NCBI RefSeq assembly: GCF_964194025.1
Contig: NC_134468.1
Span: 71,548,001-71,612,000, forward strand
Source: Convolutriloba macropyga
Taxonomy: Eukaryota
DNA length: 64,000 bases
Direction of reading: 5' to 3'
A model generated the notes under the pieces. That model saw nothing but the letters and a program-made list of their open reading frames with translations, was not told the origin of the DNA and searched no databases. A program made the translations under genes and the position numbers. Of the stretch, positions 28,185 through 44,837 are shown piece by piece; position 1 is the first letter of the stretch; the number at the start of each line of letters is the position of its first letter.

Positions 28185-29292
28185 AGTATCAAATTTGGCT
28201 GGGCTGCTACAGATCACACAATACGGGATCTCTTTATGTATGCCAGTCAAACTTGACAAAAGATATAACAAATCGAAGGCAAAGATATATGCCTAAGACC
28301 TGTCTGTGCTATAAGTCTCAATTTAAAATAGTTGGGGGGCTGAAAGTATTAAATTTATAAAAGAGTAAATATAAAATTACAGCTTACTAATTACCAGTTG
28401 TGTAGTGGTGAATTGGAGGTGAGCTGTTGGGCGATCGTTCACTTGGGTGTTTCTTCAGTTATGTTATTTGTCGAAAAAGAAAGTTATAAAATCAAATCTG
28501 GAATTATTTGTCTAAGTTATTAAACAATTTTGTTCGACTATTTTATTGTTAAAGTGAAGTTAAATTTTGAGAAAAAATGAAAGCAGTTGTCTGCTGCTTG
28601 TTTCTGGGTGTGATTTCTGTCTCTCTAATTTTATTCCGTCCCACTTCGCTGAGAGAAACAATTAATTCCTCTCAGCTCCGTTTGGGCCGATAGGGAGCGA
28701 ATCACAAACTCACGTTCATAGTGAGGTGCTTCTTAATTTTCCTATTGGCCGAGAAGGCAAGAGAATTAACTCTTTTTTATCTCACGGAAAAATTATTGAA
28801 ACTCCAAAAAATAATAAAAATCTAAAAAGCTGAGAGCATCAATTATTGATTTCGTAGGCGCCTGTTTTCTGCTTTTCCCCTCTTCTAAAACCGCAACAAT
28901 TATGGTTTTCTTGGGGGCTTTTTATGAGACTCTATTGTCTTTCCCCTGAAGCAATCTGCTTCATCTTTATTGAACTTGGGGGGAAAGATCTGCATTGCAA
29001 CTGTCAAAAGCAGAAGTAATTTAAATCAAAAGAAACTGTGGTTTTACAGGCCGCCTACGTTCAACAACGTACATTTTCTATCCTGGATATAAGCGAGGAG
29101 ATCCAGGCCTAAAGTTGTGTTATTTAAATAAGTCGAACTGAGTTGTTTAAATACTTGTGTACTGGTAGTCTTAATAAGCGTTAGTTTGTTTAGCGCGCGG
29201 CGAAAGAATGGTTAATTAGCGCCTAAATACGTTCGCTCTAATGCGGGATTAATTATCCGCTCATTTGTAACAGCTCTCGTAATACTACAGCT
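28185..29292 (-). repeat. 3' LTR of giant gypsy element (1108 bp)
   Basis: Matches 47088-48197 with about 5 differences seen by eye (3 substitutions, 2 one-base indels). Confidence 0.95.
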
Positions 29293-29305
29293 CACCCCGA
29301 TTTTT
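29293..29305 (-). promoter_or_regulatory. Short, imperfect polypurine tract before the 3' LTR
   Basis: Element strand reads AAAAATCGGGGTG immediately before the LTR start AGCTGTAG. Confidence 0.45.
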
Positions 29306-29479
29306 AAGATAAAAAAGAAAATGATTAAAAAAAGAAATATATTGCATCGTATATAATTTTATTGCGATTGAGACATATAAATGAGTTACTACAAGTTTAG
29401 AAAGTTATGAAATTAATCGCAAAGGGCAACAATGGTATGCTATAAAATAAATCGCAAAGGGCGATAATGTTGTGCTGTA

Positions 29480-30655
29480 TTATTCAAAAAATTCTGGGGG
29501 CAAAATGACTGGGCTTGACATCGGACTGTTACCATCGTCTTCGATCAAAAGAACCTCTTGTATATCGTCCTCAGTTGGTTTGTCCTTATCCATTGATTGT
29601 CGCTTTTTGTGCTTTTTAGCTCTCCTTTTGAGCTCGGAAATTTTGTTTCTTTGTTCTTCGTTTTCCTTCATTAATTGTGTTATTTTCTTTCCTAGCTCCA
29701 GATTCTTTTCTCCAAGTTTTTTGTTGGCGTTTGTTATTTCCAGATGTTTCAAGGAGAACGTTTTTAGCATAGTTTGTGCATTCGATTCGCTGGTTTTTTG
29801 GAGTTGATGGGCAACGACATATTGGCGCCGCCAATAGTCGTTAAGTAGTTGCTTTTCCTCAGGTGGTTTCTGTGATTCCATTTTCAGTTGTTCAAATTTC
29901 AGTTGCAATTCTTGCAACTCTGTTTCCTTTTGAAACAGTTCCTGCCTGAATGTGGTGTTTTCCTCTATTAAACTACTAGTATTGATGTTTGATAGTTCTG
30001 GCATCTCAACAGGAAAAGCGGAAATTGCGTCGTAAGGGACTTCAATATATGCGTCGAGCATATTATTCCTAAGGGTATAAGTGCCCTTCATAGGGTCGCG
30101 ATTTTTAATTCTCCACTTGTTGTTTTCTGTGGGGAGCGAGAAGGTTTTCAGAACTGGAAGCTTTTCGCTGTTGACTAGTATCTGTTGATGTCCATTTGAC
30201 TGGATGATGTTTATTTTACTAGCAACCTCAAACTTGTTGTAGTTTGGTTTCAGGAAATAGAGGAGGGTATTAACGTACCTCGGGTTTTCTTTGTTCATAT
30301 TTTCCTCTCGCGGTTTCTGTAATTTCAAACATTCTGAGGGTATCTTCCTGATAGCGTCGGGAACGAGATCTTCAATGTTGTTCATCTTAATAATTTTGTT
30401 TTTGTGATTGCTAATTTGTTGGATTGGGAATTGTCTCTTTCTGCTAATTTGCCAGTTGTTTTCGGGATCATATTGACTGGAAGTTGATGGAGATGCAATA
30501 GTTGTAGTAACTTGTTGTGTGTTCTGAGGTTTAAATGGAGGCTTTGAGAAAATAGGAGGCTGGGAAGAATGGGTTTGTGTTTGTTCTTGTTGTGTTGTCA
30601 CTTGTTGATGTTGACTGGGGATTATTACGCTTGCGAGTGTGGGTCTGGTAGTCAT
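29480..30655 (-). CDS. Accessory ORF, 391 aa: Q/T/P-rich N-terminus, globular middle, coiled coil, basic NLS-like and SIM-like motifs
   Basis: ATG start. Heptad-rich ELFQKETELQELQLKFEQLK and KKLGEKNLELGKKITQL; KRRAKKHKKR; IQEVLLIEDD. AATAAA follows at about 29360. Confidence 0.8.
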   Translation of the reverse strand: MTTRPTLASVIIPSQHQQVTTQQEQTQTHSSQPPIFSKPPFKPQNTQQVTTTIASPSTSSQYDPENNWQISRKRQFPIQQISNHKNKIIKMNNIEDLVPDAIRKIPSECLKLQKPREENMNKENPRYVNTLLYFLKPNYNKFEVASKINIIQSNGHQQILVNSEKLPVLKTFSLPTENNKWRIKNRDPMKGTYTLRNNMLDAYIEVPYDAISAFPVEMPELSNINTSSLIEENTTFRQELFQKETELQELQLKFEQLKMESQKPPEEKQLLNDYWRRQYVVAHQLQKTSESNAQTMLKTFSLKHLEITNANKKLGEKNLELGKKITQLMKENEEQRNKISELKRRAKKHKKRQSMDKDKPTEDDIQEVLLIEDDGNSPMSSPVILPPEFFE

Positions 30656-30950
30656 TGTTAGTGTTTCCTTGTGGATGATCTAAAATTATTTGATTTTGGT
30701 TAGCCTGTGTCATCAATATCACACATTATGGCTTCTTTTCAAGTTTGCAATTGTATTGCTAATATAAAAAAAAGTATTCTATTGTAAAAATGTTTTTGTA
30801 AGGTTTTGTTGCTAACTGCTTTACTTAAAAATTATAATGCTAAATGCATTTGTTATTAGAGTTTGGTATAAAAGTTTTTGTTTTGCTAAATGCAAAGTTA
30901 ATTTTAATAAAGGGAGGGGGGGTCATAAATTAAAAAATTTTTATACTTAT

Positions 30951-31075
30951 GCCAGGCGGGCAGCCCTGGCACAAGTACGTCTTTCTCCGCTGCCCGGAGG
31001 TGTGAGTCTTGGGGCGTGCGTCACACTAACACGGCTGCAACGACCCGTGCTGCTGGGGAGACAACCTTGCTGAGC
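30951..31075. ncRNA. GC-rich multi-stem structured element (candidate cis-acting RNA)
   Basis: Stems GCCAGG/CCTGGC, CTCCG/CGGAG, GTGTGA/TCACAC and CACGG/CCGTG, plus 8-nt complementarity CGGGCAGC/GCTGCCCG between two hairpins. Confidence 0.5.
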
Positions 31076-31249
31076 TGAAAGAAAAATTTTTCGGGTCGTT
31101 TTTGAAAATTTCAGTTATCGTGTTAGTGTTCTGAATTATTTAGGTTCAAAAGCCAGGGGGGCAGGCTGGAGAAAGCTGAGGTAACCCCTTCCCGAGGAAA
31201 AGTTAAAAGGAAAAAAAAGATCGTTTGGACTTGAGTTGTTTTTGGTTTA

Positions 31250-31642
31250 TCAGACAACGTCGTCTAAAAAATTTTTGCAAATGGGACATTTTTTCTGCTT
31301 ATTTGTACATACTCGACAGAATCGATGTTCGTCATGTTGGGAAAAATGTGGGTGTTTTGTTACTCCTAATTCTGTTTTCATTTTTTTGCATAAATTGCAT
31401 CGGAAGTAGGATGTGATCAGGACGGGAAGACAAGGTCGAAGACAGATGGGACATTTAGGGTTTGGGTATCTCTTAAAAAGTGCTTTTCTGCAAGGAATAC
31501 ATACATAGTGGGGATTTTCTTTGGGGAATTGCTTGTGTAGTTTTTCTACAATAACGGTTTTCCGTGAACATATAGGGCAGATAATGTCCTTATGGGGATA
31601 GAACCAACGGAAACCGTCGAATAGGGATTGTGAAAGACCCAT
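31250..31642 (-). CDS. Double RING-like zinc finger protein 3 (130 aa), N-myristoylation motif MGLSQS
   Basis: C-x2-C-x10-H-x8-H-x2-C-x2-C-x12-C-x2-C, then x14 and a second CxxC-x23(H-rich)-CxxC-x6-CPxC. Confidence 0.85.
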   Translation of the reverse strand: MGLSQSLFDGFRWFYPHKDIICPICSRKTVIVEKLHKQFPKENPHYVCIPCRKALFKRYPNPKCPICLRPCLPVLITSYFRCNLCKKMKTELGVTKHPHFSQHDEHRFCRVCTNKQKKCPICKNFLDDVV

Positions 31643-31666
31643 CGAGTGACTGTTCTCTTATTTTCC

Positions 31667-31789
31667 TTAGATAGAAACAGGAAAACCTTTGAGAAACTGC
31701 AGTAGGATGAGATTAATGAGGAACGATATGGCAAGCAAGGTAATTAGGATTAGGATAAATATTTTTGTGGATAGGTCTAGATTGGTCAT
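31667..31789 (-). CDS. Hydrophobic micropeptide 3 (40 aa), not in ORF track
   Basis: Hand translation: MTNLDLSTKIFILILITLLAISFLINLILLQFLKGFPVSI*. Confidence 0.65.
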   Translation of the reverse strand: MTNLDLSTKIFILILITLLAISFLINLILLQFLKGFPVSI

Positions 31790-31791
31790 TT

Positions 31792-31908
31792 TTAGTATCT
31801 GGAGAAAATTTGGCGAATTGCGGAAAGGAGGTAGTTATTAATAAAAAGGGATATTGTCAATGCGCATAAGAGAACAAATAGAAGAATAGACAATGTTATG
31901 GGTTGCAT
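31792..31908 (-). CDS. Hydrophobic micropeptide 2 (38 aa), not in ORF track
   Basis: Hand translation: MQPITLSILLFVLLCALTISLFINNYLLSAIRQIFSRY*. Confidence 0.65.
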   Translation of the reverse strand: MQPITLSILLFVLLCALTISLFINNYLLSAIRQIFSRY

Positions 31909-31912
31909 TTTG

Positions 31913-32050
31913 TCAATTCAATGAGTAGTGTAGAACTAGGGTGAAGGAGGTGATTTGCTCCTGGTAAAAACTGAGTTGAATTAGGGATATCGATTGGATT
32001 AAAAATAAAATTAGGGAAAGAAGTAAAATTTTGGATGTTCTTGGACTCAT
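31913..32050 (-). CDS. Hydrophobic micropeptide 1 (45 aa), not in ORF track
   Basis: Hand translation: MSPRTSKILLLSLILFLIQSISLIQLSFYQEQITSFTLVLHYSLN*. Confidence 0.6.
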   Translation of the reverse strand: MSPRTSKILLLSLILFLIQSISLIQLSFYQEQITSFTLVLHYSLN

Positions 32051-32056
32051 TTTAGA

Positions 32057-32434
32057 TTATGTGGTTGTTTTTTCGCAACGAGGGCATAATTTATAATCTT
32101 CTACGCAAAATTTACAAAAGTTGACGGGCTTATGATCACTGTGATGAAACGTTTTTGCAACAGAGTATTGAAATCTTGTTTGTTTGCAAATATCACATTG
32201 AAACCAGTTAAAGATTGAAAAGATAACATTAAATTTAGAGCATTTAGGACAAAAATCGTAGCCCATATCTTTTATAACATATTGGTAACAGAGCAGACAC
32301 ATTACGTGGGGTAGTTCGTCAGGGGGGTTCTCGTGTAATTTCTTGAAGACAATTGTTTCACGTCTGCAGCATAAACAAATTAATGAGACCGGTTTGGATT
32401 CTATAGTATTGGTTTCTTTGTCAGTTGTATTCAT
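32057..32434 (-). CDS. Double RING-like zinc finger protein 2 (125 aa)
   Basis: Same Cys/His spacing and KLH..PH, F-x-C motifs as 31250 and 32703. Confidence 0.85.
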   Translation of the reverse strand: MNTTDKETNTIESKPVSLICLCCRRETIVFKKLHENPPDELPHVMCLLCYQYVIKDMGYDFCPKCSKFNVIFSIFNWFQCDICKQTRFQYSVAKTFHHSDHKPVNFCKFCVEDYKLCPRCEKTTT

Positions 32435-32460
32435 TTTTGGAAGATTGTTATTGGAGGGGA

Positions 32461-32664
32461 TTATGGGACTGGTATGGTTGGAGGATTTGGTTGTTGATTA
32501 TTTTGGGATTTTATTGCTTGGTCTATTACTAATATAACTACTAACATCAAAAAATTGAAAGGAATACTTACAACAACGAGGAAAACGGTTAAAATGAAGG
32601 AGAAGGCTGCTGCAATAATCATGAGGGCCATTAATAAAAAATCAAGTACTTTGGGGATAAACAT
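32461..32664 (-). CDS. Small membrane protein (67 aa from first ATG; track ORF starts at GTG 32709)
   Basis: MFIPKVLD followed by about 39 uncharged, mostly hydrophobic residues (one long TM or a hairpin) and a Q/N/P tail. Confidence 0.65.
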   Translation of the reverse strand: MFIPKVLDFLLMALMIIAAAFSFILTVFLVVVSIPFNFLMLVVILVIDQAIKSQNNQQPNPPTIPVP

Positions 32665-32702
32665 TTTGGATAATTTGTGAAGGTAGTTTTGAATCAAGGA
32701 TT

Positions 32703-33101
32703 TTACCACGGGTTGTTTGGGTCAATTGTTTGTTTGCATAAGGGGCATTTAGTAGTGGTGAAGGTCATACACTGCAAACAAATTGATTTTTCAGGGTGTA
32801 GGCTTTTGAAGTGGCTGTGGCAAGTGGATAACTTTTTGATTTCTTGACAAGAATCACACTGGAAATAATGGCAATGACTGATTGTATAAATGGGAGTTAC
32901 GCAAATGGGGCATTTAGGTTGGTTCCAATATTTAAATAATTCGTTTCTACAAGGAATGCAAGCAAAATGGGGGGGCTGACCATTTGGGTTTTTGTGCAAT
33001 TTTTTGAATTGACGGCAAGGGAGATAACAAACAGGGCATTCAACTTTAGGGGTTGTATCAATTTGAGGTTGCTGAGACGATATCTTCAGAATGTTTCCCA
33101 T
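32703..33101 (-). CDS. Double RING-like zinc finger protein 1 (132 aa), begins MG
   Basis: CPVC-x10-H-x8-H-x2-CIPC-x12-CPIC-x14-CDSC..CLQC-x7-CPLC; the ATG overlaps the upstream stop (TAATG). Confidence 0.85.
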   Translation of the reverse strand: MGNILKISSQQPQIDTTPKVECPVCYLPCRQFKKLHKNPNGQPPHFACIPCRNELFKYWNQPKCPICVTPIYTISHCHYFQCDSCQEIKKLSTCHSHFKSLHPEKSICLQCMTFTTTKCPLCKQTIDPNNPW

Positions 33102-33367
33102 TATAAGGAGAAATTAGAAAGATCCGGGTATACGAGTTCTAATCCATGGTGTTCAAGTTCGTTGGGGATAGTTACATTTAAATCTGCAATAGCAAAAAAG
33201 AAATTCCAGTGTTTTTCGTTTGGATAAATATAATAATGATTAATGGTACCTGTGCTTAAGAACATATAAGTTATTTTGATACATGCTTTATATTGTGTAA
33301 AACAGATATTGAACCATCTTTCTACTTTAAGAATTTTAATTTTTTCCTTACCAATAAACAAAATCAT
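33101..33367 (-). CDS. Small accessory protein family A, member 5 (88 aa)
   Basis: MILF..ERWF..CIKITY..PNEKHWNFF; aligns by eye with 33507, 33737, 33979 and 34502. Confidence 0.75.
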   Translation of the reverse strand: MILFIGKEKIKILKVERWFNICFTQYKACIKITYMFLSTGTINHYYIYPNEKHWNFFFAIADLNVTIPNELEHHGLELVYPDLSNFSL

Positions 33368-33506
33368 TTTAGTTTTAACAATTTGGAAAGAAATGAAGGG
33401 AAGAGAACAAATTGATCAGAAAAAAAAGGATAGAAAAAAATGAAGAAGAGGAAAGGAGAGAAAAAAAAAAATTTTGTGGAGAGCAAGTTATGTAAAACAA
33501 ATTACT

Positions 33507-33737
33507 TTACTGAAGAGCGCCCAAGTTGAATGGGAAGTGCTCTTCGATATCGATGAGTGCGAGAAAGAATTCCCAGTGCATCATTCCCATTGTTACTCGA
33601 GTAGAACCCTCACATCCACGCTCGTAGTCTGTATAGTGTATAATTATACAGGGTTTAATCTCTGCTGTGGAAGTTTCAATGAAAGATCTCTCGAGGGATT
33701 CTACTTTGACTAGGCGCTCACCAAAGTGGAACAGCAT
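33507..33737 (-). CDS. Small accessory protein family A, member 4 (76 aa)
   Basis: MLF..ERSF..PCIIIHY..HWEFF..PFNL; TAATG overlap with the upstream ORF. Confidence 0.75.
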   Translation of the reverse strand: MLFHFGERLVKVESLERSFIETSTAEIKPCIIIHYTDYERGCEGSTRVTMGMMHWEFFLALIDIEEHFPFNLGALQ

Positions 33738-33970
33738 TATAGAAGATCTAAATTAAAAGGGATTTTAGAACCATTTAAAGCTTGGGATATATTTATAAAG
33801 AATGTCCAATAGGGGGAAGATGGTGTTAAGGTAATGGTTCCATCAGTCCAAGTGTTTAAATATTCAAAATGGAGTATTAATTGTGGGATTACTCTGTTGC
33901 TTTTTGTCGTGACAAATGATTTTTCAAAAAATTGTATTTGTATAAGGCAGTTTTGGTATGAGAATATCAT
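33737..33970 (-). CDS. Small accessory protein family A, member 3 (77 aa)
   Basis: MIF..EKSF..PQLILHF..LTPSSPYWTFF..PFNL. Confidence 0.75.
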   Translation of the reverse strand: MIFSYQNCLIQIQFFEKSFVTTKSNRVIPQLILHFEYLNTWTDGTITLTPSSPYWTFFINISQALNGSKIPFNLDLL

Positions 33971-33978
33971 TGCTGCTT

Positions 33979-34263
33979 TTAATTGTTAATAGTTTCCAAT
34001 TCTTTAGTAATGAAATCGTTTTGAGAACAATCACTTTTCGGCAATTCAAAATAAAGATTGTGAGGTACACAGTTTGGGTTTTCTAGAATAAAGAGGAAGA
34101 ATTTCCAATGAACTGAAAGAGGATTAATACTTATTAAACAAATTTTTTCACTTTGGATTTCTTTGAGCGTTACTAGCATAGTAGGTACAGGAGTTGGGTA
34201 TGCATCAAAAGATCGTTGAATTTTTTGTAACTCTACAAATTTATTGTTAACTGCAAATATCAT
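33979..34263 (-). CDS. Small accessory protein family A, member 2 (94 aa)
   Basis: MIF..QRSF..PTMLVTL..PLSVHWKFF..PHNL. Confidence 0.75.
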   Translation of the reverse strand: MIFAVNNKFVELQKIQRSFDAYPTPVPTMLVTLKEIQSEKICLISINPLSVHWKFFLFILENPNCVPHNLYFELPKSDCSQNDFITKELETINN

Positions 34264-34278
34264 AGTTTAGAATGATAC

Positions 34279-34518
34279 CTAAGCAATGTAGATTGGATGT
34301 TGTACTTGAAATACCGAGTTCTCTTTGAATGCTAGAAAAATGGTGAATTCGGCAAACTGAGGATGAGTAATGAAAATAGTTAAAAGTCTGTAAATATTTG
34401 TCATGGGTTTTTTTGCGAAAGTCATTATACTTATAGCGGAAACATAGTATACGGCTAATAGCTCAAAATTTTGGTTTCCGATTCTGATTTGTAAGTTTCT
34501 ATTAGTTAAATGAATCAT
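34279..34518 (-). CDS. Small accessory protein, family B-like (79 aa)
   Basis: C-terminal THPQFAEFTIFLAFKENSVFQV resembles PNF..LL..L...NSVIE of 44838 and 45344. Confidence 0.6.
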   Translation of the reverse strand: MIHLTNRNLQIRIGNQNFELLAVYYVSAISIMTFAKKPMTNIYRLLTIFITHPQFAEFTIFLAFKENSVFQVQHPIYIA

Positions 34519-34744
34519 GTTGCTGATCTAGCTCGTTTGGCAAACTATTAGGGTCGAATTGTGCTAAATACACGAAATAATTCCAATACAACGAATGAGG
34601 GGTTAAAATCACAGTATCGTATTCCCAAGTGTCCCAAAACTCAAAATTTATAATGATTTGAGGGAAAATGTCTCCGTGATTTTCTTCAAAAGTTTTCTTT
34701 ATTTGATAAATTGTAACGAGTCTATCTTGAAACAAAAAGTACAT
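34502..34744 (-). CDS. Small accessory protein family A, member 1 (80 aa)
   Basis: MYF..KKTF..PQIIINF..LTPHSLYWNYF..PNEL; closest by eye to 33737. Confidence 0.75.
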   Translation of the reverse strand: MYFLFQDRLVTIYQIKKTFEENHGDIFPQIIINFEFWDTWEYDTVILTPHSLYWNYFVYLAQFDPNSLPNELDQQHDSFN

Positions 34745-35046
34745 TAATGGAAGCGTTTTAGTTGTTAATTAACTTATTGTTCTTCATTTCAAAACTATGT
34801 ATAAAAGTATGTAAATGTAAAAAAAAGGATAAAAAAAGGGTGTGTCAATTATTTCTGAAAAGAGGATTATTGACAACGATTGATATTTATAGATAATATA
34901 TCAATCGGATTCACTGAGGCAAAATCGGAGTATGGGAAGAGTGCAGGCAATAGCTAGATAGACATAGTTGCGATTACATAGTTGAAAATGGATTATAAGA
35001 AATAAAAAGCAAGGAAGGAATCCACACATGTCTCTTACAGGAAAAG

Positions 35047-35331
35047 TCAAAGTCTAATAATATTTTTCTTCAGATGCTTTGAAACAATTTTGTATTCGAC
35101 TCCAATGTTTACAAAAGTAATTGTGTCATCAATCAGGGCTCTTAACAATGAGAAGTATTGAAAATTTGAATGCGGTACGTCCAAGTCTATAATGTCACTG
35201 AAGTAGAAAGATGCAACTCTAATAGTTACAGTAGTTTTTAAATCGGAAAGACTTGAGGATAATATCTGTCCGGTGTATTGTCCAAATCGAATGAATAAAG
35301 CGTTAGGCTGTTTTATGAATTTGGGTTGCAT
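35047..35331 (-). CDS. Small accessory protein (94 aa), unknown function
   Basis: ATG start, co-oriented, first ORF after env; weak resemblance (IRFG, HSNFQYF) to 34279. Confidence 0.6.
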   Translation of the reverse strand: MQPKFIKQPNALFIRFGQYTGQILSSSLSDLKTTVTIRVASFYFSDIIDLDVPHSNFQYFSLLRALIDDTITFVNIGVEYKIVSKHLKKNIIRL

Positions 35332-35458
35332 AGCATAGCATCCTTGAGGTGTATCTAAACAAGATATTAATTAACTTATAGAGTCTAATACAAATAATCT
35401 TTTTTATTTTTGAGACAAATTATTTTTTTATGAAAAAGATGATTTTTTTTAACAGCTT

Positions 35459-37807
35459 TTAAGGAGGTGCCACCACACTTCGAATGGTTGCATCATTTTG
35501 TGGTTGTGGTTGATGTGACGCCAGATTTGGGTATTCTCCTTTATTATTTTCTGTATGACAATGCTCATCAATTTTATTTTCTCTTGGTTGATCCTCAACG
35601 CATTTGTAAGTTTTTTCTATTGTGCTGTAAGGTTGATAATTACTAAGCGGTAAAAAATGATTGTTGTTCTGCGGGGCCGACGGTTTGGTTTCGTTAGAGA
35701 ATACCGGTGTAAAGAACGATAAGATACAGAGATTATATGTTGCTCCTAATAGAATTTTCCAAAAACCCATTGTTTTGTTGGATATTTTGTGGATTTCGAA
35801 CGCTCTTATGATTGTTACGATTACATCAGTTAAGAATTTTGTGCACAAGAAACAAGCAAAATAAACTCCAATTTTTTCCAGATAAAAAGTGATGATTCCA
35901 AAAGTGCCTTTGAACTGGTCTGTAAAAAATGTAGGTGAAAGAAGAGAATCTAGATAAATTTGTCTGTTAATTCCCATTGCTGACGCATAGATATCTTTTT
36001 GAGAATAGTCTATGCTTCTTCCTTCTAGAACTTCTCTTGAAATTTTTGTCAAAACAGATTTTGAAGCTTCCGAATGCAAGATATTGTCCCAAAAAGATTT
36101 AAGTTGATTTGGTGTGTAAATTCCGGCACGTTGCGATTCGTAACCGGTAAATTTTGGAATAGAACTAATAACTCTTGAAGAGAATATTTTTGGCGGTTGT
36201 AAAGGAACAGGTGCTGGCATCAAATGGTACCATGAATTTTCATTATCAATATCTAATTGGTAGGCATTTTTGTAGCCTCCAACACAATCTACTTCGTTTG
36301 CAAAAGGGTAGGTTTGTCGAGTAATTGGGTCGACGAACATTGTCCTACCATCATAATGAATAGGAATCCTATCATAACACTGTTCAAGAACCTGAAGTGG
36401 TGAGTTTCGTTTTGGACAGTGGTACAGCCAACCTATGCTACCATCTGTGTCTAAGAACATCGAGCGGTTGCCGGTTAACATATATCCAGCTAAACGATTG
36501 TTTTGGATAGCCTGCATTAGTATCATTTGTTTTTGAGTTCGGTCAAGTTCGCATTGTTCTATGACCAAACCTTTCCATGCTTGTTTTATTTGCATGTAAT
36601 TATGATATATGACAAAATCCATTTTTACCGCAAGGTTAAGATCATAGTCTAACTTGTCTTTGTCTAAGTGTTCCCATGCAACAAAACCATTGTCGGATGT
36701 TCGGATCTGTTCATCTGAAGGCTTCCTATTAAACCCATTTACACTTAGGCTATTGTCAGGTTCAACACGAAGTTTATGAAAAAATTGTTGAGTTTTTGTT
36801 TTATAAGGTTTGCCAGTCTTCATATTAAATCCGCCTTTATAAGAAACATATAAAGAATCTAAATTTGTTCTGTAAATAAATTCTGGTTTTCCACACACCT
36901 TTCCTTTTTCATCAATTACTCTAATTTTTATGTCCATTTCAGCAGGAGAATACGTTCCTGGTCCTTCATAGGGCGTCTCCGGTTTTTCATCACTCACTAT
37001 GAAATACTGTACGTTACCAAGTTCGTTTTCATGTTTTAGCATTTTTGCGTTTTGTGAAAATCTTTTAGTAACTATACAATTTTCCGGTGCCTCCCAATTG
37101 TATGCAAAGGGGTCGAGTGATGTCGAATGACAACCTCCTTCTGAGAGGGCATAAGGAAGTTTTAGTCCTTGACTGTTATAGACAGTTCTGTCATTAAGAT
37201 CAATATCGAGTACAGTTTCTTGCATCAAGGTTTCAAAAGAGAAGTGTTTAATTTGACCACGATTATCACAAGATGTTGATGATTCACCTTCAAGATCAAC
37301 TCCCTGGTTTTTATAGGAGACAGTTTTTATTCCATGTTTTATGTCTATTTCCTTGTCATCATCGTCAAATTCGGTAACAGTAATTTTTCCAGTTTTATTA
37401 GCATTTAGGCATTGTTCGGGTGAAACAATAATATCGTATGTTATTATTGGAGCGTTGTGTACAATTGATGAATGGGAAAACATACCACAATTATAACGAA
37501 TGAGCATTGCAGTGACTTTGCACATAAGAGCTTTAACAAAGGTCCGATAAGACCGTTGATAAAGTGTTACATGTGTATCAACCATTTGAATGTTTTCGGG
37601 TGTAATTTTGCAAGGAGAAACTTGTGTTAAAGCATACATTTTATTTTCTTTCATTTTAGAACAGTCATAATGAATGACCCTAAGTTTGTTAGATACGTCA
37701 TTAATATCCTCAGTAGCGTTAATAACTATAGAAAGAGTACAAAAGTAGAAAAGACTTATAAGTAAATAAGAAAAATAGAGTTTTTCAAAACAAGGATATC
37801 TTTTCAT
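35459..37807 (-). CDS. env: Envelope glycoprotein, chuvirus-G/herpes-gB-like (class III fusogen-like), 782 aa from first ATG
   Basis: Signal-like FSYLLISLFYFCTLSIVINA; Cys-rich ectodomain with HYDCS, CELDR, WLYHC..CYDRIPIHYDGRTMFVDPITR..VDC and GIYT; C-terminal hydrophobic segments; located after pol. The frame is open from 37867. Confidence 0.8.
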   Translation of the reverse strand: MKRYPCFEKLYFSYLLISLFYFCTLSIVINATEDINDVSNKLRVIHYDCSKMKENKMYALTQVSPCKITPENIQMVDTHVTLYQRSYRTFVKALMCKVTAMLIRYNCGMFSHSSIVHNAPIITYDIIVSPEQCLNANKTGKITVTEFDDDDKEIDIKHGIKTVSYKNQGVDLEGESSTSCDNRGQIKHFSFETLMQETVLDIDLNDRTVYNSQGLKLPYALSEGGCHSTSLDPFAYNWEAPENCIVTKRFSQNAKMLKHENELGNVQYFIVSDEKPETPYEGPGTYSPAEMDIKIRVIDEKGKVCGKPEFIYRTNLDSLYVSYKGGFNMKTGKPYKTKTQQFFHKLRVEPDNSLSVNGFNRKPSDEQIRTSDNGFVAWEHLDKDKLDYDLNLAVKMDFVIYHNYMQIKQAWKGLVIEQCELDRTQKQMILMQAIQNNRLAGYMLTGNRSMFLDTDGSIGWLYHCPKRNSPLQVLEQCYDRIPIHYDGRTMFVDPITRQTYPFANEVDCVGGYKNAYQLDIDNENSWYHLMPAPVPLQPPKIFSSRVISSIPKFTGYESQRAGIYTPNQLKSFWDNILHSEASKSVLTKISREVLEGRSIDYSQKDIYASAMGINRQIYLDSLLSPTFFTDQFKGTFGIITFYLEKIGVYFACFLCTKFLTDVIVTIIRAFEIHKISNKTMGFWKILLGATYNLCILSFFTPVFSNETKPSAPQNNNHFLPLSNYQPYSTIEKTYKCVEDQPRENKIDEHCHTENNKGEYPNLASHQPQPQNDATIRSVVAPP

Positions 37808-37910
37808 CCTGTTCTTTTTTAGCGCTTCAAGTCGGGAATTAAGGCTATAAGTTGTAGTAATAGGCACTGCCAGTAAATGTTGACTGGATTTATTGCTACC
37901 TAAAACAAAG

Positions 37911-40900
37911 TTAAGTAAATCCGGCTTGATAGCGTGATGGCGGCTTGGCCGAGCGACTAGAAGTTCGCCTATTATTATTATTATTTTCTAAAGTTTGTAA
38001 ATTAGAAGGTCCTTGTTCCGATGTATTAGGGCGGAGAGGACTTAAATTAGGGTCTAGAGGTATTCTAGAATTGTGCTGTGGGCAAGGAGTTGAACTTCTT
38101 GTTCGACTACCGCTAGGTAAGTGTGTTTGGACTGGAGGTGGGTCATTACGACCACCTGAACTTGCTTCGTTGAATCCAGAATCGAAATTGGTAGGTGTTC
38201 GGTCAGGGTCGAAGTTCTGCACAGGGGAGTCTCTTCGTATGAAATTATCCACGGGGAAATATTCGGTGTTAGTGGGGCTTTGGAAGGAGAATTTAGTCAA
38301 AGGACTATTGAGTTTATTCATCTGACTTGTCATTAGATTATTATAAAATGTGTCACAATTATTTTTATCTATACCATACTCTAGAGTTAACTCTGGTATA
38401 GTTTCAGTAGCTGGGTAGTACTCGACTAGGTGATTTCTATGAGCGACCTTCCTGGTGGCCGGGTTGCTATCTAAAGTTAATTCATAGTTAACATTGGTTA
38501 GTTTTTTTTCTACAGTATAAGGACCTGATCTTAGTTCGTGTAGTTTTTTTGACTTTCCTAACTCAATTTGATGGTTTTCCATTAGAACTTTTTGTCCAAC
38601 CTCAAGTGGCTTGCCTAATTTGTGTTTGTTTCTATGTTTATGTGCGCGGTTATTGTTTTCTAAGCTCTTTTTATAAGCGTTATTGTATATTTGTTTGAAT
38701 TGGTTTTCTCGCATAAGCAACGAATTGTTAATAGTCGGTTTTAGAAGTTTGTCAATTTCGGTGTTTTTTGAAGTTTGCAAGGTATGCCTGTGAAGAGGCA
38801 GGTCTTTGCAAAACTCGGAAGAGCATGTGAGTTGTGAATTTCGTAGGAGTCCTAACTTAAGTGACAGAGGTATCTGTGGTTTTTGTCCGAACACAATTTC
38901 ATAAGGTGAGATTCCAGTACTAGCATTTGGAACCGTGTTATGAGAAAAAGCAAATTTTGGTGCCAGTTCGTCCCATTTACCTCGAGCTTGTTCTAGAAAA
39001 ATTCGGAAATGTGCTCCTAGATGTTTGTTTTGGATCTCGACTTTACCATTAGTCCAAGGCGCATAAGCAGTTCGAGGTGCGGGTGTTATACCTAATTCAT
39101 GAATGTAACTCGCAAAATCTTGGTTCATGAATGCCGAACCCTTATCATAAACAAGTTTTTGTGGTATTCCAAAAGACAAGATGAACTTTTCTAAAGCTTT
39201 TATGGTGTCTACTGCGTCTGTGGAACGTACAGGGTATACTTGAATGAAACGCGAAAATGAATCGACAATAACTAAACAATGGTGTTTACCGTTTGATGGA
39301 GGATTTAAAGGTCCTTTGTGATCAATGTGGACCGTATGAAAGGGGAATGGGACTGTATCAGTCCACTTTTCGAGAGGTGCTTCGTGGATGTCTCTCCGTT
39401 TTCGTTTATTTTTTTGGCATTCAAGGCAATCAGCAATTAGGTTTTCAATCCATTTATACATTCCGGGCCAATAAAAAAATCGTTTTACATTAGCAAGTGT
39501 TTTATCTAAACCGACATGACCTGACAGTTCACAATGAGCTAGCTGAAAAACTTTAAAGAACAATGACAGTGGTACACAAATTTTTAAGAATTCAATATCT
39601 GGTTCGTCTGTTTGATGTTGAATACATAAGATGTTGCCTACAAAACTCAGTTTTTCAAAGTTATTAATGTATGACATTATGGCTTTAGATTGTCGGAATT
39701 CAATTTTCTTTTCATCTTTGTTATTGTTCGTCCTTAATTGGCGAATTTGTTGTATCACTGGGTCTTTTAATTGTTCTTGACAAATTACCGATGTATTTAA
39801 ATCAACTTCTTTAGAGAAGATTGTCAGTTTATCGATGAGTTCTCTTGCATCTTGTATTTTTGTATTTTCGGGAAATTTTTTTGCTAATTCGGTTTTGTCT
39901 ATACAAGTGCTATTTTTCACGAGAAAAACTTTATCGTATTCTAGAGGGAATCTGTACTCCGAGTCTGTGGTATTAGTTTGATCAATGTAGAGTTTGTCAA
40001 AATCTAATTCCGGTGACTGGTTCTCATTGAACAATTCAAATTCCGAAATTGGGTCAAAATTTTGTTCGGTTATCCCTTCATCAGGGTAGGAATCAATTTC
40101 TGTATAATGATCAGACGTTTCGCCTTCCTCCTGTTCTGATACAGGGGTTATTTCATGTTTGCGGTGACGCCTATAGTGGTTAATTGATGAACCATACGAG
40201 AAATCTTCCGAAATATTGTTTATTGAGCAAAGTCTGTTTTGATTATTGTCGTACTTTTGCTTTACCATTTTGTCATTTTTGAAAATGAATTTGTCGATAC
40301 CCGTTATGCTTTGTTTTAGGATTGGAAAAAAGTCATCTGCTGGTCCCTTTTCATTATCACGCAAAATGAAGTATTTTTCCTCGTTACCATGCTCGTCGTA
40401 AAAACTAATGTCTTTTGGTATCTTTTTGTGTTTAAGTTGATACTTGTCCAGATCTTTAATTTTTACATTGCGACTTAGGATGTCGGGAAAAGCTAAGTTT
40501 TTTCCTTCAGTCCAAATAATTTTCAAGTTCTGAAATTGAGATATTACTAACTGGTATCTAAAAAACCTGTGAGAGAGTTTTCCTCTTCTACCCCATAGAT
40601 ACATTAAAGGTTTATGGTCTGTGTACACGTATACAGGATGGGGAGAACCAATTAGGTAATGCTCATGAGTTTGTAATGCCGATATTACACCGCAAAGTTC
40701 GCGTGCTGTGGTACTCATTTTTTGTTCCTCTTTAGTGTAAATTCTAGAGTTAAAAGACACTATTCGTTTCCCTTCTGGAAATTCTTGAACGAGAATTGAG
40801 CCTACTCCTATAGAAGAAGCGTCTACATGCACGTGGAAAGGGTATTTAGTATCCGGTATTGCTAAGATAGTATCTTCGCTAATTCTGTTTTTAATGTCGT

Positions 40901-43007
40901 TAAACAGTTTTTCGTGTTCCATTGTCCAAACAAATTTAGTTTCTGTGCGGGTTAAGTCATAGAATGGTTTGCAGTCAACATGCAAATTTTTGATGTACAT
41001 GCTGTAGAATCCTAAGCAGCCTAGAACTTTCATGACATCACGTTTGTTTTCAGGCGACTTAAGTGCTTTTAAATCTGCTACTCGCTTCTTGACTGGTTGT
41101 ATTCCATCTTTACCTACTACATGTCCCAAGAACTGTACTTTCCTAAGGAAAAATTTAGTCTTTTCAGGTTGAGCTTTCAATCCTGATTTCCTTAAAAGTT
41201 CATGGTACTTGTCAATTATTTCAAACATTTCGGTTTCATCTTGCGCTTGCATGATGGTGTCATCAATGTAGGTTATAGCTTGTTTTTTTCTAATTAATGG
41301 TGCAAAATGGATAGTCATTATACGACTAAAGAAATTAGGTAGACCGCATAGGCCGTAAAATCCGCGTTCAAATGTGTATTGCTTTGGACCAATTACAAAA
41401 CTTACCAGCTGTTTGGTTTCCTCAGTTAGAGGGACTTGGTTATAGGCTGAACAAAGATCACTGGTTGTGAAGAAATTACCTTTTAATCTAGTTAATAGAC
41501 TTCCGATTGGTTCGAGTGGCCATGAATATCGACTAAGGTCTGTTATTGAATTCAGATATCGGGCATCTATAACCAGTTTTACTGTGTTCCCCTTGGGTAG
41601 GATTATGATTGGATTAATAAATTCTGATCCCATTTCTTTATCATTACCCATTTCCCGGATTATACCTGTTTTACACAGTTGTTCCAATAGGTTTTCTAGT
41701 TTTTCCTGATAATGTAATGGTACTTTGGATGGTCTTTGTTTTGTCAAAGTTGAATTAGGTAAAAGTTTAACATGAAACTTTTGTTTTATCTTTCCAACAT
41801 CGTATTTGTGTTGAGAGTAAACGTCTTTATTTTTAGTTAAAGTCCTCAGTAACTTGTCTAAGTTTTCGTCATTGATATCAGCTTGACTGAAATCAAATTT
41901 TTTGAGAAACGCTTGATCGGTTTTGTCAAACCTGTTAAGTTTTTCTTTGGGAAGTTCAACGGGTCTGATGTTCTCATCAGTTGTTTCTAATTGTGGCTTA
42001 AGATCCTTGAGGTCGTCGCTAAAGTCTGTTTCTAATTCGTAGTTGTTGGTAAAATCTTGTTGCCTTTTTCGCTTTTCTGTTTTCTTTTGTTTTTCAGGAG
42101 TTTTGCTTGCAAAGAAATTTTGAATTTTTGAAATTTTTGGACCTTGTTTTTCACTAACATGGAATATTTGATCCCAATTAGTGTCACTATTCATTAGGTG
42201 GTTTATGAATGCAACGTTGTCAACTACAGAAAATTCTGGGTCTTGTCTAATTTCAATGTCTTCTAAAGTGTGTCCAATAGGACCCTTTTGGATGACAACC
42301 TTGTTGTTTTGAGGATTGTTTAGCATTATTGGTAATTCCTTTTCTTTTCTAAAACACTGAACGTTGTAAGTATAAATTCCTTGAGCTTGCAGTTCACTTC
42401 CAATTACGAAGGAGGTTCCCTTTCTGAAGAATTCATTTGGTGGTCTAATTGATATTACTCGAGTTGATTTTGGTGCTAATGGTAGTTGCTGGTCAAGAGT
42501 TACAACTTTGTAAGAGCTAATGTATGGATAGCTTTTCGTTTGGTATCTAGATAGTGTGACGGCTACTTCAGGGTAAGTTTTTAAATCAATTTTTGGAGTG
42601 GTTAGGTCAATAGATTTTACTGTAGATTCAAGGAAATCCATTCCCAACAGATTTGGCTTGCAACCATCTTTTGCTGAAACCCATGTGGTAACTTCCACTT
42701 GATACTTTCCTTCAATGTCGAAAGAAGTTTTGAAAGTAATTTGACCTAGAAGTTTTAGTTTCTCACCATTAACCGCTAAAGTATGATTTTTTGAAGCTTT
42801 CATCTCAATGTGTTGTAATTTACATAGTTCAAGATAAGTGTGGTAATTAATTATAGAGCTTGATGCTCCTGTGTCCAATAAAAACTGTGTTTCTAAGCCG
42901 TTATTTTTATTTTTGTCTCCGACGGATTGGTATAAATTAATATAGATATGTGAGTAACTTGCTTTGTTATCATTAGTGTTTATGAACGGAGACCTGTCTA
43001 GTTTAAA
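37911..43007 (-). CDS. pol: Pol (protease, dUTPase-like relic, RT, RNase H, integrase), expressed by -1 frameshift from gag
   Basis: FLLDTGAS; YIDD (41259-41270); VDAS..ELCG..TDHKPL..DILSR; H-x5-H..CxxC; IDHKGP..YDKG..KVE; GPY motif. The frame is open from the slippery site at 43007 to the stop at 37911. Confidence 0.95.
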   Translation of the reverse strand, partial: FKLDRSPFINTNDNKASYSHIYINLYQSVGDKNKNNGLETQFLLDTGASSSIINYHTYLELCKLQHIEMKASKNHTLAVNGEKLKLLGQITFKTSFDIEGKYQVEVTTWVSAKDGCKPNLLGMDFLESTVKSIDLTTPKIDLKTYPEVAVTLSRYQTKSYPYISSYKVVTLDQQLPLAPKSTRVISIRPPNEFFRKGTSFVIGSELQAQGIYTYNVQCFRKEKELPIMLNNPQNNKVVIQKGPIGHTLEDIEIRQDPEFSVVDNVAFINHLMNSDTNWDQIFHVSEKQGPKISKIQNFFASKTPEKQKKTEKRKRQQDFTNNYELETDFSDDLKDLKPQLETTDENIRPVELPKEKLNRFDKTDQAFLKKFDFSQADINDENLDKLLRTLTKNKDVYSQHKYDVGKIKQKFHVKLLPNSTLTKQRPSKVPLHYQEKLENLLEQLCKTGIIREMGNDKEMGSEFINPIIILPKGNTVKLVIDARYLNSITDLSRYSWPLEPIGSLLTRLKGNFFTTSDLCSAYNQVPLTEETKQLVSFVIGPKQYTFERGFYGLCGLPNFFSRIMTIHFAPLIRKKQAITYIDDTIMQAQDETEMFEIIDKYHELLRKSGLKAQPEKTKFFLRKVQFLGHVVGKDGIQPVKKRVADLKALKSPENKRDVMKVLGCLGFYSMYIKNLHVDCKPFYDLTRTETKFVWTMEHEKLFNDIKNRISEDTILAIPDTKYPFHVHVDASSIGVGSILVQEFPEGKRIVSFNSRIYTKEEQKMSTTARELCGVISALQTHEHYLIGSPHPVYVYTDHKPLMYLWGRRGKLSHRFFRYQLVISQFQNLKIIWTEGKNLAFPDILSRNVKIKDLDKYQLKHKKIPKDISFYDEHGNEEKYFILRDNEKGPADDFFPILKQSITGIDKFIFKNDKMVKQKYDNNQNRLCSINNISEDFSYGSSINHYRRHRKHEITPVSEQEEGETSDHYTEIDSYPDEGITEQNFDPISEFELFNENQSPELDFDKLYIDQTNTTDSEYRFPLEYDKVFLVKNSTCIDKTELAKKFPENTKIQDARELIDKLTIFSKEVDLNTSVICQEQLKDPVIQQIRQLRTNNNKDEKKIEFRQSKAIMSYINNFEKLSFVGNILCIQHQTDEPDIEFLKICVPLSLFFKVFQLAHCELSGHVGLDKTLANVKRFFYWPGMYKWIENLIADCLECQKNKRKRRDIHEAPLEKWTDTVPFPFHTVHIDHKGPLNPPSNGKHHCLVIVDSFSRFIQVYPVRSTDAVDTIKALEKFILSFGIPQKLVYDKGSAFMNQDFASYIHELGITPAPRTAYAPWTNGKVEIQNKHLGAHFRIFLEQARGKWDELAPKFAFSHNTVPNASTGISPYEIVFGQKPQIPLSLKLGLLRNSQLTCSSEFCKDLPLHRHTLQTSKNTEIDKLLKPTINNSLLMRENQFKQIYNNAYKKSLENNNRAHKHRNKHKLGKPLEVGQKVLMENHQIELGKSKKLHELRSGPYTVEKKLTNVNYELTLDSNPATRKVAHRNHLVEYYPATETIPELTLEYGIDKNNCDTFYNNLMTSQMNKLNSPLTKFSFQSPTNTEYFPVDNFIRRDSPVQNFDPDRTPTNFDSGFNEASSGGRNDPPPVQTHLPSGSRTRSSTPCPQHNSRIPLDPNLSPLRPNTSEQGPSNLQTLENNNNNRRTSSRSAKPPSRYQAGFT
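42915..43007 (-). promoter_or_regulatory. -1 ribosomal frameshift signal: U UUA AAC plus downstream stem
   Basis: T TTA AAC (43007-43001) directly before the gag TAG. After a 7-nt spacer, GTCTCCG (42993-42987) is complementary to CGGAGAC (42921-42915). The -1 frame is the pol frame. Confidence 0.8.
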
Positions 43008-44332
43008 TACTCGTCGTTGTGATTCTCATTATTGTAATAGTTTCTGGAAGTTTCACTGGTAAAGTGAACTCGAGGGCTTCGCCCTTCACTGTTATCTCTT
43101 GAATGAGTATTATTGTTTTGTCTAGTAGGTGTCCTATCCCGGTCATGGTCTCTACTCCTATCACGATATCGATTATCTGATCTTGGAGGACCGTTGCTTT
43201 GTCTATCCCTACTATTTTGCCTATTGTTATCTCTGTAAAAGTTGTTTCGATAGTTATTTTGTCGTTCCTGTGATCGGTTATCGTAAGAAGATGATCGATA
43301 ATTGTTTGAAGAGTTTGATGGGTACGGTGATCGATGTCGGTAGTCTGATCTAGAGTTGTTTTGATAATTGGATTGATTTTGGTTATAACTATTTCTCTGT
43401 CTGTCCCTAGAATTTCGATTGTCATAATTGTTTGATTTGTAATTTTGTTGACCTGGTGAATGGCACCTACTACGTTTATAATTATCTGTGAACTTTTCTC
43501 GTTGTTGAGGTGGGTTTCGGTTTTCGTTTTTAAAGTCCTTGTACTTAAAGCAGAAAGCTATTGTGTGACCTGAACGTTTGCAAAACTTGCAGAATCTAGT
43601 CTGGTTTTGTTTGAATCTGGGGTTGTCGTTGTTGTATGTGGCGTTTATTTTATGATCTTTCATTAAATTTGCAATTTCTGTGAGTTGGTTTTTTAACCCT
43701 TCTATTTCTATTTTATTGTCGATACTACTTGAGGCAGTACCCGTGAATTCACTGCTAACAGAAAAACTTAAGTCTTTAGTTGCTACATGATCCTGTAATT
43801 GTTGCCAAGTTGTAGCTGGGTTTTCTATTAACCGCTGATGTGCCTTTTGCTTGAGTGTAGGTGGCGTTAATCCTCTTACAAAGTACTCCATACACTTAGC
43901 GTTACGCTGGTCGTTGTTAAAATCTGGATCTGGCCATCCTTTTTCAACTGCTTTTGTTACTCGGTGTGTATAGCTTTTTATCAATTCATCTGGTTGCCTT
44001 TTAATACTCTCGACTTCAATTCTTTTCCTATACTTGTCTTTTGCATCAGTAAAGCGGGTAATGAACTGATTTCTAACTTCGTTCCATGCTAAACCTGGTG
44101 CTAAGGTTTCAAACCATTGGGCTGCGGGCCCACGCAAAACCGAACCAAACAATGCTTTTTGTCTAGCGTCGTATGCTGCTTGTAAATCAGCATCCGCAGG
44201 ATCTCTTGTTCCTAGTGAGAATTGGATTTTTCTTTGTATTAAACTAAAGAATTCCTGGGCATCTTCAGATGGATCTAAACCTGTAAATTTCTCTAACGCT
44301 ATGTCGGGGTACGCAACAACGTTCGCTGCCAT
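42998..44332 (-). CDS. gag: Gag (444 aa) with CCHC knuckle and long R/S/N/D-rich tail
   Basis: AAACATGG start context; capsid-like LRGPAAQWF..WNEVRNQFITRF..QPDELIKSYTHR; CKFCKRSGHTIAFC (CX2CX4HX4C). Confidence 0.92.
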   Translation of the reverse strand: MAANVVAYPDIALEKFTGLDPSEDAQEFFSLIQRKIQFSLGTRDPADADLQAAYDARQKALFGSVLRGPAAQWFETLAPGLAWNEVRNQFITRFTDAKDKYRKRIEVESIKRQPDELIKSYTHRVTKAVEKGWPDPDFNNDQRNAKCMEYFVRGLTPPTLKQKAHQRLIENPATTWQQLQDHVATKDLSFSVSSEFTGTASSSIDNKIEIEGLKNQLTEIANLMKDHKINATYNNDNPRFKQNQTRFCKFCKRSGHTIAFCFKYKDFKNENRNPPQQREKFTDNYKRSRCHSPGQQNYKSNNYDNRNSRDRQRNSYNQNQSNYQNNSRSDYRHRSPYPSNSSNNYRSSSYDNRSQERQNNYRNNFYRDNNRQNSRDRQSNGPPRSDNRYRDRSRDHDRDRTPTRQNNNTHSRDNSEGRSPRVHFTSETSRNYYNNENHNDEYLN

Positions 44333-44441
44333 GTTTTGTTTTAGTATATGAAAAGAATATTTTATACGAAGGTACTATTAGTTTGGGTAATTAGTGTAGA
44401 AAATATTTTTGTTATGACAATTAAGTAATAAAACACTAATA

Positions 44442-44816
44442 CTAAAGTAGAAAGTTGAATTGTTTGTTTTGTGTTATGAATTTTATTTGTTTAGGCCCGT
44501 TTAATGATTGTATTTTAAATTCAAAGTTTTTGCCGTTATCAGTGCTAAAGATTTCAACCCAAGAGTAAATATCAGTTTGCTCGACGGTAAAATTTAATAA
44601 CCAAGGATACGTATTTTCAGAGTGTTTAAATTCAACAGAGTATTGGTGAAATCTGTTTATTTTTGAAAATCTAATTTGTGTGACAAATTCTGTTTTTATA
44701 AGTAATTTAACTCTATCTGGTAAACTCGGATCGTCAGGAGAAACGTTGATGTATTTGGGTTTAATGATTTTTAAAATTTGTAAACCAAACGGGGAAGTTA
44801 TATTTTGGTGGCTCAT
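44442..44816 (-). CDS. Accessory ORF upstream of gag (124 aa from first ATG), unknown function
   Basis: Co-oriented, non-repetitive, beta-strand-like composition; the track start 44822 is GTG. Confidence 0.6.
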   Translation of the reverse strand: MSHQNITSPFGLQILKIIKPKYINVSPDDPSLPDRVKLLIKTEFVTQIRFSKINRFHQYSVEFKHSENTYPWLLNFTVEQTDIYSWVEIFSTDNGKNFEFKIQSLNGPKQIKFITQNKQFNFLL

Positions 44817-44837
44817 CCACACGCTAGATGATAACGT

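Follow-up and report, generated by a model that had tools for sequence, protein, structure and literature searches.

Two adjacent open reading frames of 38 and 40 codons (TM38 and TM40) in an LTR retroelement of Convolutriloba macropyga are selected as proteins, as strongly between two subfamilies of that element as the RING-type genes that are their neighbours. They are very probably real genes, and form a tandem-duplicated pair encoding predicted single-pass membrane peptides. A third short ORF beside them (TM45) is kept as an ORF, with its start, frame and stop, but without measurable constraint on its amino acids. The account preferred here adds that ribosomes would pass from one of these ORFs to the next by reinitiation, and that the helices of TM38 and TM40 would pack against other membrane proteins. 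Taken as a whole, that account is evenly poised between being right and being wrong. The readings weighed below are not, of course, all mutually exclusive.

The window (the whole stretch analysed, 64,000 nucleotides) contains a 20-kb Ty3/gypsy element of the errantivirus type, with an env of the gB type. Table 1 lists its parts, together with other features of the window.

Table 1. Features of the LTR element, in the order of its coding strand, and of the DNA around it. Positions are those of the window; "intact" counts refer to 120 copies of the young subfamily.
Feature	Position	Strand	Remarks
LTR element	28187..48197	-	
5' LTR	47091..48197	-	99.6% identical to 3' LTR over 1107 nt
104-nt tandem repeat	46036..46855		in long 5' leader
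124-aa ORF	44442..44816	-	upstream of gag
gag, 444 aa (Retrotrans_gag)	42998..44332	-	Pfam
pol, 1630 aa	37911..42803	-	RT, RNase H, integrase in Ty3/gypsy order, from domain matches
env, 782 aa	35459..37807	-	viral fusion glycoprotein (gB/chuvirus type), Pfam PF24664, E 1.2e-38
94-aa accessory ORF	35047..35331	-	after env; relatives in sister families
Six accessory ORFs, 76-94 aa	33101..34744	-	five clear paralogues, one divergent; relatives in three sister families
RING1	32703..33101	-	tandem Cys2-His2-Cys4 RING-like, by ligand columns; starts Met-Gly
TM67, 67-aa membrane ORF	32461..32664	-	between RING1 and RING2; intact in 102/120
RING2	32057..32434	-	tandem Cys2-His2-Cys4 RING-like, by ligand columns; stop precedes TM45
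TM45, 45-aa ORF	31913..32050	-	6 nt after RING2 stop; intact in 105/120
TM38, 38-aa predicted single-pass membrane peptide	31792..31908	-	4 nt after TM45 stop; intact in 98/120
TM40, 40-aa predicted single-pass membrane peptide	31667..31789	-	2 nt after TM38 stop; intact in 112/120
RING3	31250..31642	-	tandem Cys2-His2-Cys4 RING-like, by ligand columns; starts Met-Gly-x-x-x-Ser
G+C-rich non-coding segment	30935..31080	-	14-bp hairpin, fold z -1.96
391-aa accessory ORF	29480..30655	-	before 3' LTR; relatives in all four sister families, RING-less one included
3' LTR	28187..29292	-	purine-rich tract just ahead of it
Second LTR element	55059..62737	+	near-identical terminal repeats, RT, integrase, DUF5641; presumably Bel/Pao-like
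Long low-complexity ORFs	5089..6618 (-); 1019..1603		12-, 27- and 9-15-nt repeats

The element has all of the features of gB-type errantiviruses that were tested: the Pol order together with a gag, a separate env, LTRs, and near-identical copies. In this genome (G000), all 40 of the matches that were scored, among 245 candidates, are 92-100% identical, and a wider listing holds at least 150 copies among 634 candidates. Between env and the 3' LTR lie 15 ORFs on the same strand: one of 94 aa, six of 76-94 aa, three RING-like, four membrane, and one of 391 aa, whose C-terminal part appears coiled-coil-like.

Some of this region lies outside the argument. The 77-aa paralogue family of the array of six accessory ORFs gives a confident model (pLDDT 89) with a beta-meander and a helix, for which fold searches returned no clear match (best Z 5.4, an EF-P N-domain). 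The G+C-rich segment is 81% identical in the decayed family L115 and has a short motif in common with family L217; it has no Rfam match, and is possibly a promoter or an RNA element. Rfam gave only two chance-level matches over 30600-35500. The 509-aa low-complexity ORF has no Pfam match.

A preliminary description of this DNA reported three ORFs of 45, 38 and 40 aa, separated from the preceding stop by 6, 4 and 2 nt, in the gap between RING2 and RING3, and a 67-aa membrane ORF between RING1 and RING2. These coordinates are borne out; the gap itself, given as 415 bp, measures 414 nt. All three ORFs are intact together in 80 of the 120 copies. The same description argued that such tiling is not to be expected by chance from T-rich DNA. 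This is upheld, both by the selection on TM38 and TM40 described below and by simulation: none of 20,000 dinucleotide shuffles, and none of 1,236 windows of flanking DNA, contained a chain of three ORFs of at least 30 aa with gaps of at most 10 nt. Two hydrophobic ORFs arose in one shuffle of the 20,000, and three in none. Further, T is concentrated at the second codon position (0.48 in TM45, 0.51 in TM38 and 0.61 in TM40, against 0.28 in RING2 and RING3), a pattern that general T-richness would not produce.

The best 19-residue hydropathy is 2.44 for TM45, 2.69 for TM38 and 3.00 for TM40. By this measure TM38 and TM40 qualify as having a predicted transmembrane helix, while TM45 is marginal. 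The hydrophobic core of about 20 residues once ascribed to each of the three does not extend to TM45, whose unbroken apolar run is about 11 residues, its hydropathy value notwithstanding. That run follows a basic N-terminus and precedes a polar C-terminal half. By eye, TM45 looks like a signal peptide, with a basic n-region, a short h-region, and small residues at -3/-1. TM67 has about 40 apolar residues and a tail rich in Pro, Gln and Asn, and is probably a two-helix hairpin. In TM38 the helix is preceded by uncharged residues and followed by basic ones; in TM40 one Lys stands on each side. The basic residues after the helix number two in TM38, one in TM40 and none in TM45. Only 3-10 residues lie outside the helix on either side in TM38 and TM40. 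Pfam has no match for TM45, TM38, TM40 or TM67, and none above cut-off for three related peptides; the ESM Atlas offered no usable match for TM40.

A shared hydrophobic pattern had been seen in all three ORFs. It stands for TM38 and TM40, whose similarity is reached in only 23-32 of 2,000 shuffles at the protein level and 1 of 300 codon shuffles at the DNA level; with a TM38 copy of the old subfamily, the protein figure is 3 of 2,000. It does not stand for TM45, whose similarity to TM38 and TM40 is chance-like (551 and 270 of 2,000). TM38 and TM40 are tandem paralogues, and TM45 is unrelated to them.

Selection was examined across copies of the element. The young subfamily began as 148 loci, from which 7 duplicate or tandem loci were removed; 17 of the remaining 141 failed on span or identity, and one identical pair was collapsed, leaving 123. 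Moving three copies of the old subfamily out of this set gave the 120 used here. An older subfamily was sought because dN/dS within the young family alone is underpowered. It provides 15 loci, about 85% identical to the young copies, and differences fixed between the two sets were counted column by column.

Here, TM38 shows 6 non-synonymous and 10 synonymous differences (omega 0.21, p 0.0065), and TM40 shows 2 and 7 (omega 0.11, p 0.0056). These tests rest, of course, on 16 and 9 differences in a single pair of subfamilies. The RING genes, compared in the same way, give 0.13 (RING1), 0.24 (RING2) and 0.21 (RING3). TM45, with 10 non-synonymous and 4 synonymous differences, gives 1.17. The three micropeptides had been treated as alike; two are a pair of selected paralogues, and the third departs from them in its ancestry and in its omega alike. 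For TM67 (7 and 7 differences, omega 0.36, p 0.064), purifying selection is suggestive only.

The signal is specific to the frame and robust to the settings. None of the five other frames of TM38 and TM40 reaches p 0.05 (lowest 0.091 and 0.13). With singleton variants as the neutral base, p is 0.017 for TM38, 0.030 for TM40 and 0.75 for TM45, and 0.0013 for TM38 and TM40 pooled. Across 12 settings, in which three tandem or intermediate loci were dropped, majority thresholds raised, and the transition ratio varied, pN/pS ranges over 0.17-0.30 for TM38 (p 0.0004-0.053), 0.10-0.17 for TM40 (p 0.0016-0.02) and 0.52-1.84 for TM45 (p at least 0.29).

Within the young family, singleton variants are approximately neutral (omega 0.8-1.6). 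Variants common to at least three copies give omega 0.25-0.34 for the RING genes (p at most 1.3e-6), and 0.97, 0.58 and 0.57 for TM45, TM38 and TM40, pooled 0.69 and not significant (p 0.079). The preliminary description had named common frame-breaking indels as fatal to it, and no widespread allele breaks the reading frame of any of the three ORFs. Of 36 frameshift or stop events there, none is common to at least three of the 123 copies, whereas 42 of 128 synonymous variants are (p 6e-6); this contrast is inflated because indels recur less than substitutions. For stops alone, the counts are 0 of 12 here and 17 of 97 in other frames. The only widespread deletion in TM38 is of 12 nt, in frame, in 40 copies. 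TM38 lacks its ATG in 13 of 120 copies, one such allele being common to 10; therefore, some lineages have spread without the canonical start. The RING ORFs are intact in 75 (RING1), 92 (RING2) and 61 (RING3) of 120 copies, and the RING frameshifts that are shared fall in homopolymer runs.

What, then, is TM45? One reading holds that TM45 works in cis, as a ribosome relay that must be translated or as the carrier of an RNA signal, its product being irrelevant; TM38 might share this role in part. An omega of 1.17 in an ORF whose start, frame and stop both subfamilies retain is as this reading would have it. So are the absence of an internal ATG in TM45, the replacement of Leu by Pro (21 copies) and by Ser (30 copies) within its apolar run, and the 34 nt just before TM38 (31953-31920), in which the subfamilies do not differ. 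The omega is, however, an estimate from 14 differences only. Further, 6 of the 7 changes fixed at apolar residues of TM45 remain apolar, and T is still enriched at its second codon positions; hydrophobicity is thus kept, as would be expected of a signal peptide or a fast-evolving membrane protein. A relay with an irrelevant product is a serious candidate, if somewhat short of an even prospect.

The junctions bear on how any of these ORFs might be translated. In 36 of the 120 young copies RING2 and TM45 overlap as TAATG. TM38 and TM40 overlap as ATGA in 51 of 120 and are joined by a stop, 2 nt and an ATG in 65; in the old subfamily ATGA occurs at 13 of 15 loci. Across four families (the list for one mixes two loci), stop and start are no more than 30 nt apart at 28 of 44 accessory junctions. 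AAA stands ahead of 6 of 14 accessory starts, all three of the short ORFs here included, and ahead of 2 of 55 other ATGs. That the coupling of stop to start is kept through different junction forms (TAATG, ATGA) points to reinitiation. Read-through of stops, giving RING-peptide fusions, was considered and rejected: RING2 and TM45 share a frame in the window, but in the 36 copies with TAATG they do not, and the RING1/TM67 and L122 junctions are out of frame.

UGGGA, upstream of the junction, is the 18S-complementary motif of a TURBS. On the coding strand TGGGA is absent between 33099 and 29294, so none lies upstream of the three starts. The known stop-start cases (caliciviruses, influenza B, SART1) resemble the element in their UAAUG or AUGA overlaps, with stop and start within 20-30 nt; they differ in having a single junction with a TURBS or downstream structure (PMC10275272), whereas the element strings many junctions together and has no UGGGA close to the three starts. 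In caliciviruses, reinitiation is given as 3-20% per step (PMC10275272). At such rates, serial reinitiation over eight ORFs would be inefficient.

This is where an alternative enters, that the peptides are real but that each comes from its own spliced or internally initiated RNA. TM38 has an acceptor-like, pyrimidine-rich AG site 28 nt ahead of it and TM40 has one at 9 nt; the old subfamily retains both. The gaps of 127, 302, 139 and 594 nt in the accessory region could hold promoters or acceptors, and in Tor elements env expression is described as relying on splicing or on an internal promoter (PMC4402516). However, TM45 has no acceptor-like site before it. Of 36 accessory starts in three families, 12 have one, and the background rate is 17-26%; that count does not support splice acceptors as a general feature of accessory starts. 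Separate RNAs would also not require the recurrent stop-start overlaps. No splice-like joint is present among 15 listed of the 79 contigs that cover the element (three runs of one study, kind unrecorded), which is uninformative on expression. Individual RNAs for each peptide are, on balance, rather unlikely.

Four further env families in the genome were followed to their accessory regions; searches with three env proteins (P0016, P0018, P0026) gave no further new family in that genome. The first (L122/L125-136, env 62%) has two RINGs and two membrane ORFs, of 105 and 63 aa; the shorter of these stands 100 nt downstream of the second RING in L122 and recurs in 10 of 12 further loci. L133 of this family carries tandem partial env duplications (607-4066) that give two chimeric ORFs of 560 aa. 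In the second (L215-222, env 51%), a single RING is followed 3 nt later by a membrane ORF of 33-34 aa at 8 of 8 loci. Over 30 loci, overlapping these 8, the peptide has its ATG in 27 and shows only 3- and 6-nt indels; its replacements are mostly among Ile, Leu and Val, its length is 32-34 aa, and it has no tail. In the third (L113-124, env about 50%) neither of the two RINGs has a membrane ORF next to it; one of 30-37 aa follows the last long ORF. The fourth (L223-230, with a distant env) has no RING match and, by pattern, a membrane ORF of 40-42 aa in 7 of 8 loci. Homology of TM38 to this last peptide is not proposed: two young copies gave 10 and 31 of 5,000 shuffles, but an old copy gave 917. 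These elements thus generally carry short membrane ORFs, which vary in number and sequence; a RING often precedes such ORFs but is not required.

The RING proteins themselves carry Cys2-His2-Cys4 ligand columns in the MDM2 order, invariant or nearly so, twice per protein. The RING model (pLDDT 75) finds the MDM2 RING as its top Foldseek match, weakly (E 0.12, with none at E 0.001 or below). Several RING ORFs end in Asn-Pro-Trp or Ser-Pro-Phe-like motifs. A Met-Gly N-terminus is a myristoylation motif, and four of eight RING ORFs, across four families, start this way; Gly2 of RING1 and of RING3 is kept in 122 of 123 copies each, which suggests that these RINGs may be targeted to membranes by myristoylation. 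RING relatives from other sources (P0142, P0150, P0156) also start Met-Gly.

The preliminary description saw the peptides as membrane adaptors, perhaps partnering the RINGs. As a full hypothesis, they would be substrate adaptors or anchors in a split membrane ubiquitin ligase, one that would remove proteins of the host surface in the manner of the K3/K5-MARCH ligases. A short membrane ORF does follow a RING gene in three of the four RING-bearing families (that of the window, L122 and L215-222), and that much of the suggestion stands. The best PDB sequence match of the RINGs is MDM2 (E 1.3e-4), the Met-Gly starts suggest membrane targeting, and many copies of the L215-family peptide begin M-H-P-I like old TM38 copies (family pattern M-H/Q-P-I), although over 28 pairs its resemblance to TM38 is borderline (2-589 of 2,000 shuffles). 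What speaks for partnering itself is adjacency. All four sister families have short membrane ORFs of their own, and one of these families is without a RING; partnering with a RING is therefore not obligatory. The two RINGs of L113-124 have no such ORF beside them. The tails of the peptides are about 10 residues or fewer, that of the L215 family is missing, and myristoylated RINGs would need no anchor. One locus, L231 (G000:C16:33691800-33692330), reads a RING and a membrane ORF as a single frame of 177 aa (P0151); as evidence for pairing it was set aside, being 1 of 30 loci and a decayed copy. Adaptors or anchors for the RINGs thus seem quite improbable. The elaborated form, evolved by invertebrate errantiviruses, in which myristoylated tandem RINGs of the MDM2 type and swappable helices of 32-45 aa would be made in fixed ratio by a relay on one polycistronic RNA, is a long shot; were it true, the helices would pick out host membrane proteins for removal.

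Slightly further from credence still than plain adaptors is the proposal that TM38 and TM40 are class I viroporins, oligomeric pores that would aid particle release or trafficking. Their size and single helix fit that class as it is described (PMC11714672), their helices hold conserved Ser and Asn, and short membrane ORFs, one or more per family, occur in all of the env-bearing families examined. Those helices are otherwise almost wholly aliphatic, however, and the Ser and Asn are spread round them rather than forming one continuous face. In the peptides of the sister families the Ser/Asn pattern is missing or only weakly shared, and up to four different membrane ORFs per element would fit several targets better than one pore. 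That the ORFs are merely chance hydrophobic frames in T-rich spacer DNA, with no selected protein, is barely credible and for TM38 and TM40 largely refuted: to the non-significant signal within the young subfamily and the lack of a Pfam match are opposed the shuffles, the frame-specific purifying selection, the paralogy, and the in-frame indels of the L215-family peptide.

The preferred account, a selected TM38/TM40 pair beside an ORF kept only as such, is then as follows. A few subgenomic RNAs would start in the larger gaps, and each would be read by relay, ribosomes passing by stop-start reinitiation from RING2 to TM45, TM38, TM40 and RING3. TM45 would be an ORF resembling a signal peptide, for which being translated counts more than the sequence it encodes. 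The peptides would insert as single helices, and the charge pattern of TM38 suggests N-out. The helix of TM38 or TM40 would then pack against other membrane proteins, using a Ser/Asn face unchanged between subfamilies. An intramembrane partner is proposed because so few residues lie outside the helix and because the Ile-Ser-x-x-Ile-Asn face is kept; that partner would most likely be the Env of the element itself or a host surface protein. The peptides are accordingly read as swappable accessory modules, not as obligate cofactors of the RINGs.

Genes of 32-45 codons fall below every usual ORF cutoff, and yet TM38 and TM40 are selected as strongly as their RING neighbours. LTR retrotransposons are usually annotated as gag-pol(-env), whereas all five env-bearing families examined here have short membrane ORFs of their own. 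This accessory-gene content would put invertebrate errantiviruses near the complex viruses. The peptides may also serve as short, easily expressed probes for the host membrane processes that these elements manipulate, and the stop-start chain may offer a natural setting in which to test serial reinitiation in an animal.

Comparison with known systems places the element among the "ancient errantiviruses" with a gB-type Env of Chary and Hayashi, which it resembles in gag-pol-env, Ty3/gypsy Pol, a PF24664-like Env and near-identical copies, and from which it differs in its 15 extra ORFs between env and the 3' LTR (PMC13524379). The methods of that paper annotate gag, pol and env only, and its main text, as far as available, does not mention RING, zinc finger, accessory, or extra, additional or small ORFs. 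According to a review, LTR elements have now and then captured ORFs downstream of env (PMC6431247). Titles and the opening lines of abstracts, a coverage outside which most subscription papers fall, contain no description of such peptides or accessory arrays.

A second comparison is with the sORF2/FAST proteins of insect Ty3/gypsy elements (Voichek et al.), which likewise are small same-strand membrane ORFs, some of them downstream of pol (PMC11952523). Those were defined in env-less elements; they are 63-107 aa long, their ectodomain comprises about 30 residues, and they carry a polybasic patch and, in most cases, an N-myristoyl motif (PMC11952523). The peptides here have 38-45 aa, and their element has its own env. 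The helix is common to both. However, TM45, TM38, TM40 and TM67 have no MGxxxS/T (no Gly2), only 3-9 residues precede the helix, and no polybasic patch follows it; membership was therefore rejected.

The preliminary description also named Vpu, E5 and SH, which are like these peptides in size but are not related to them. In Vpu a host ligase is recruited by a folded cytoplasmic domain; the tails of TM38 and TM40, at about 10 residues, offer no such domain, and membership in that group was rejected too. The likeness to class I viroporins and Vpu is that of small single-helix proteins of enveloped elements (PMC11714672). The peptides here also resemble the E5 protein of BPV, though no sequence relation to it is expected. 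E5 has a C-terminal cysteine pair, which they lack. E5, at 44 aa, acts by helix-helix contact with one hydrogen-bonding residue, and shares with the peptides a length of about 40 aa, nearly all of it helix, and one polar residue within that helix (PMC4547410). In TM38 and TM40 the hydrogen-bonding residue would be Asn24 and Asn26, each within the long helix and identical between subfamilies. By analogy, BPV E5 may be the best functional model for the way in which TM38 and TM40 act.
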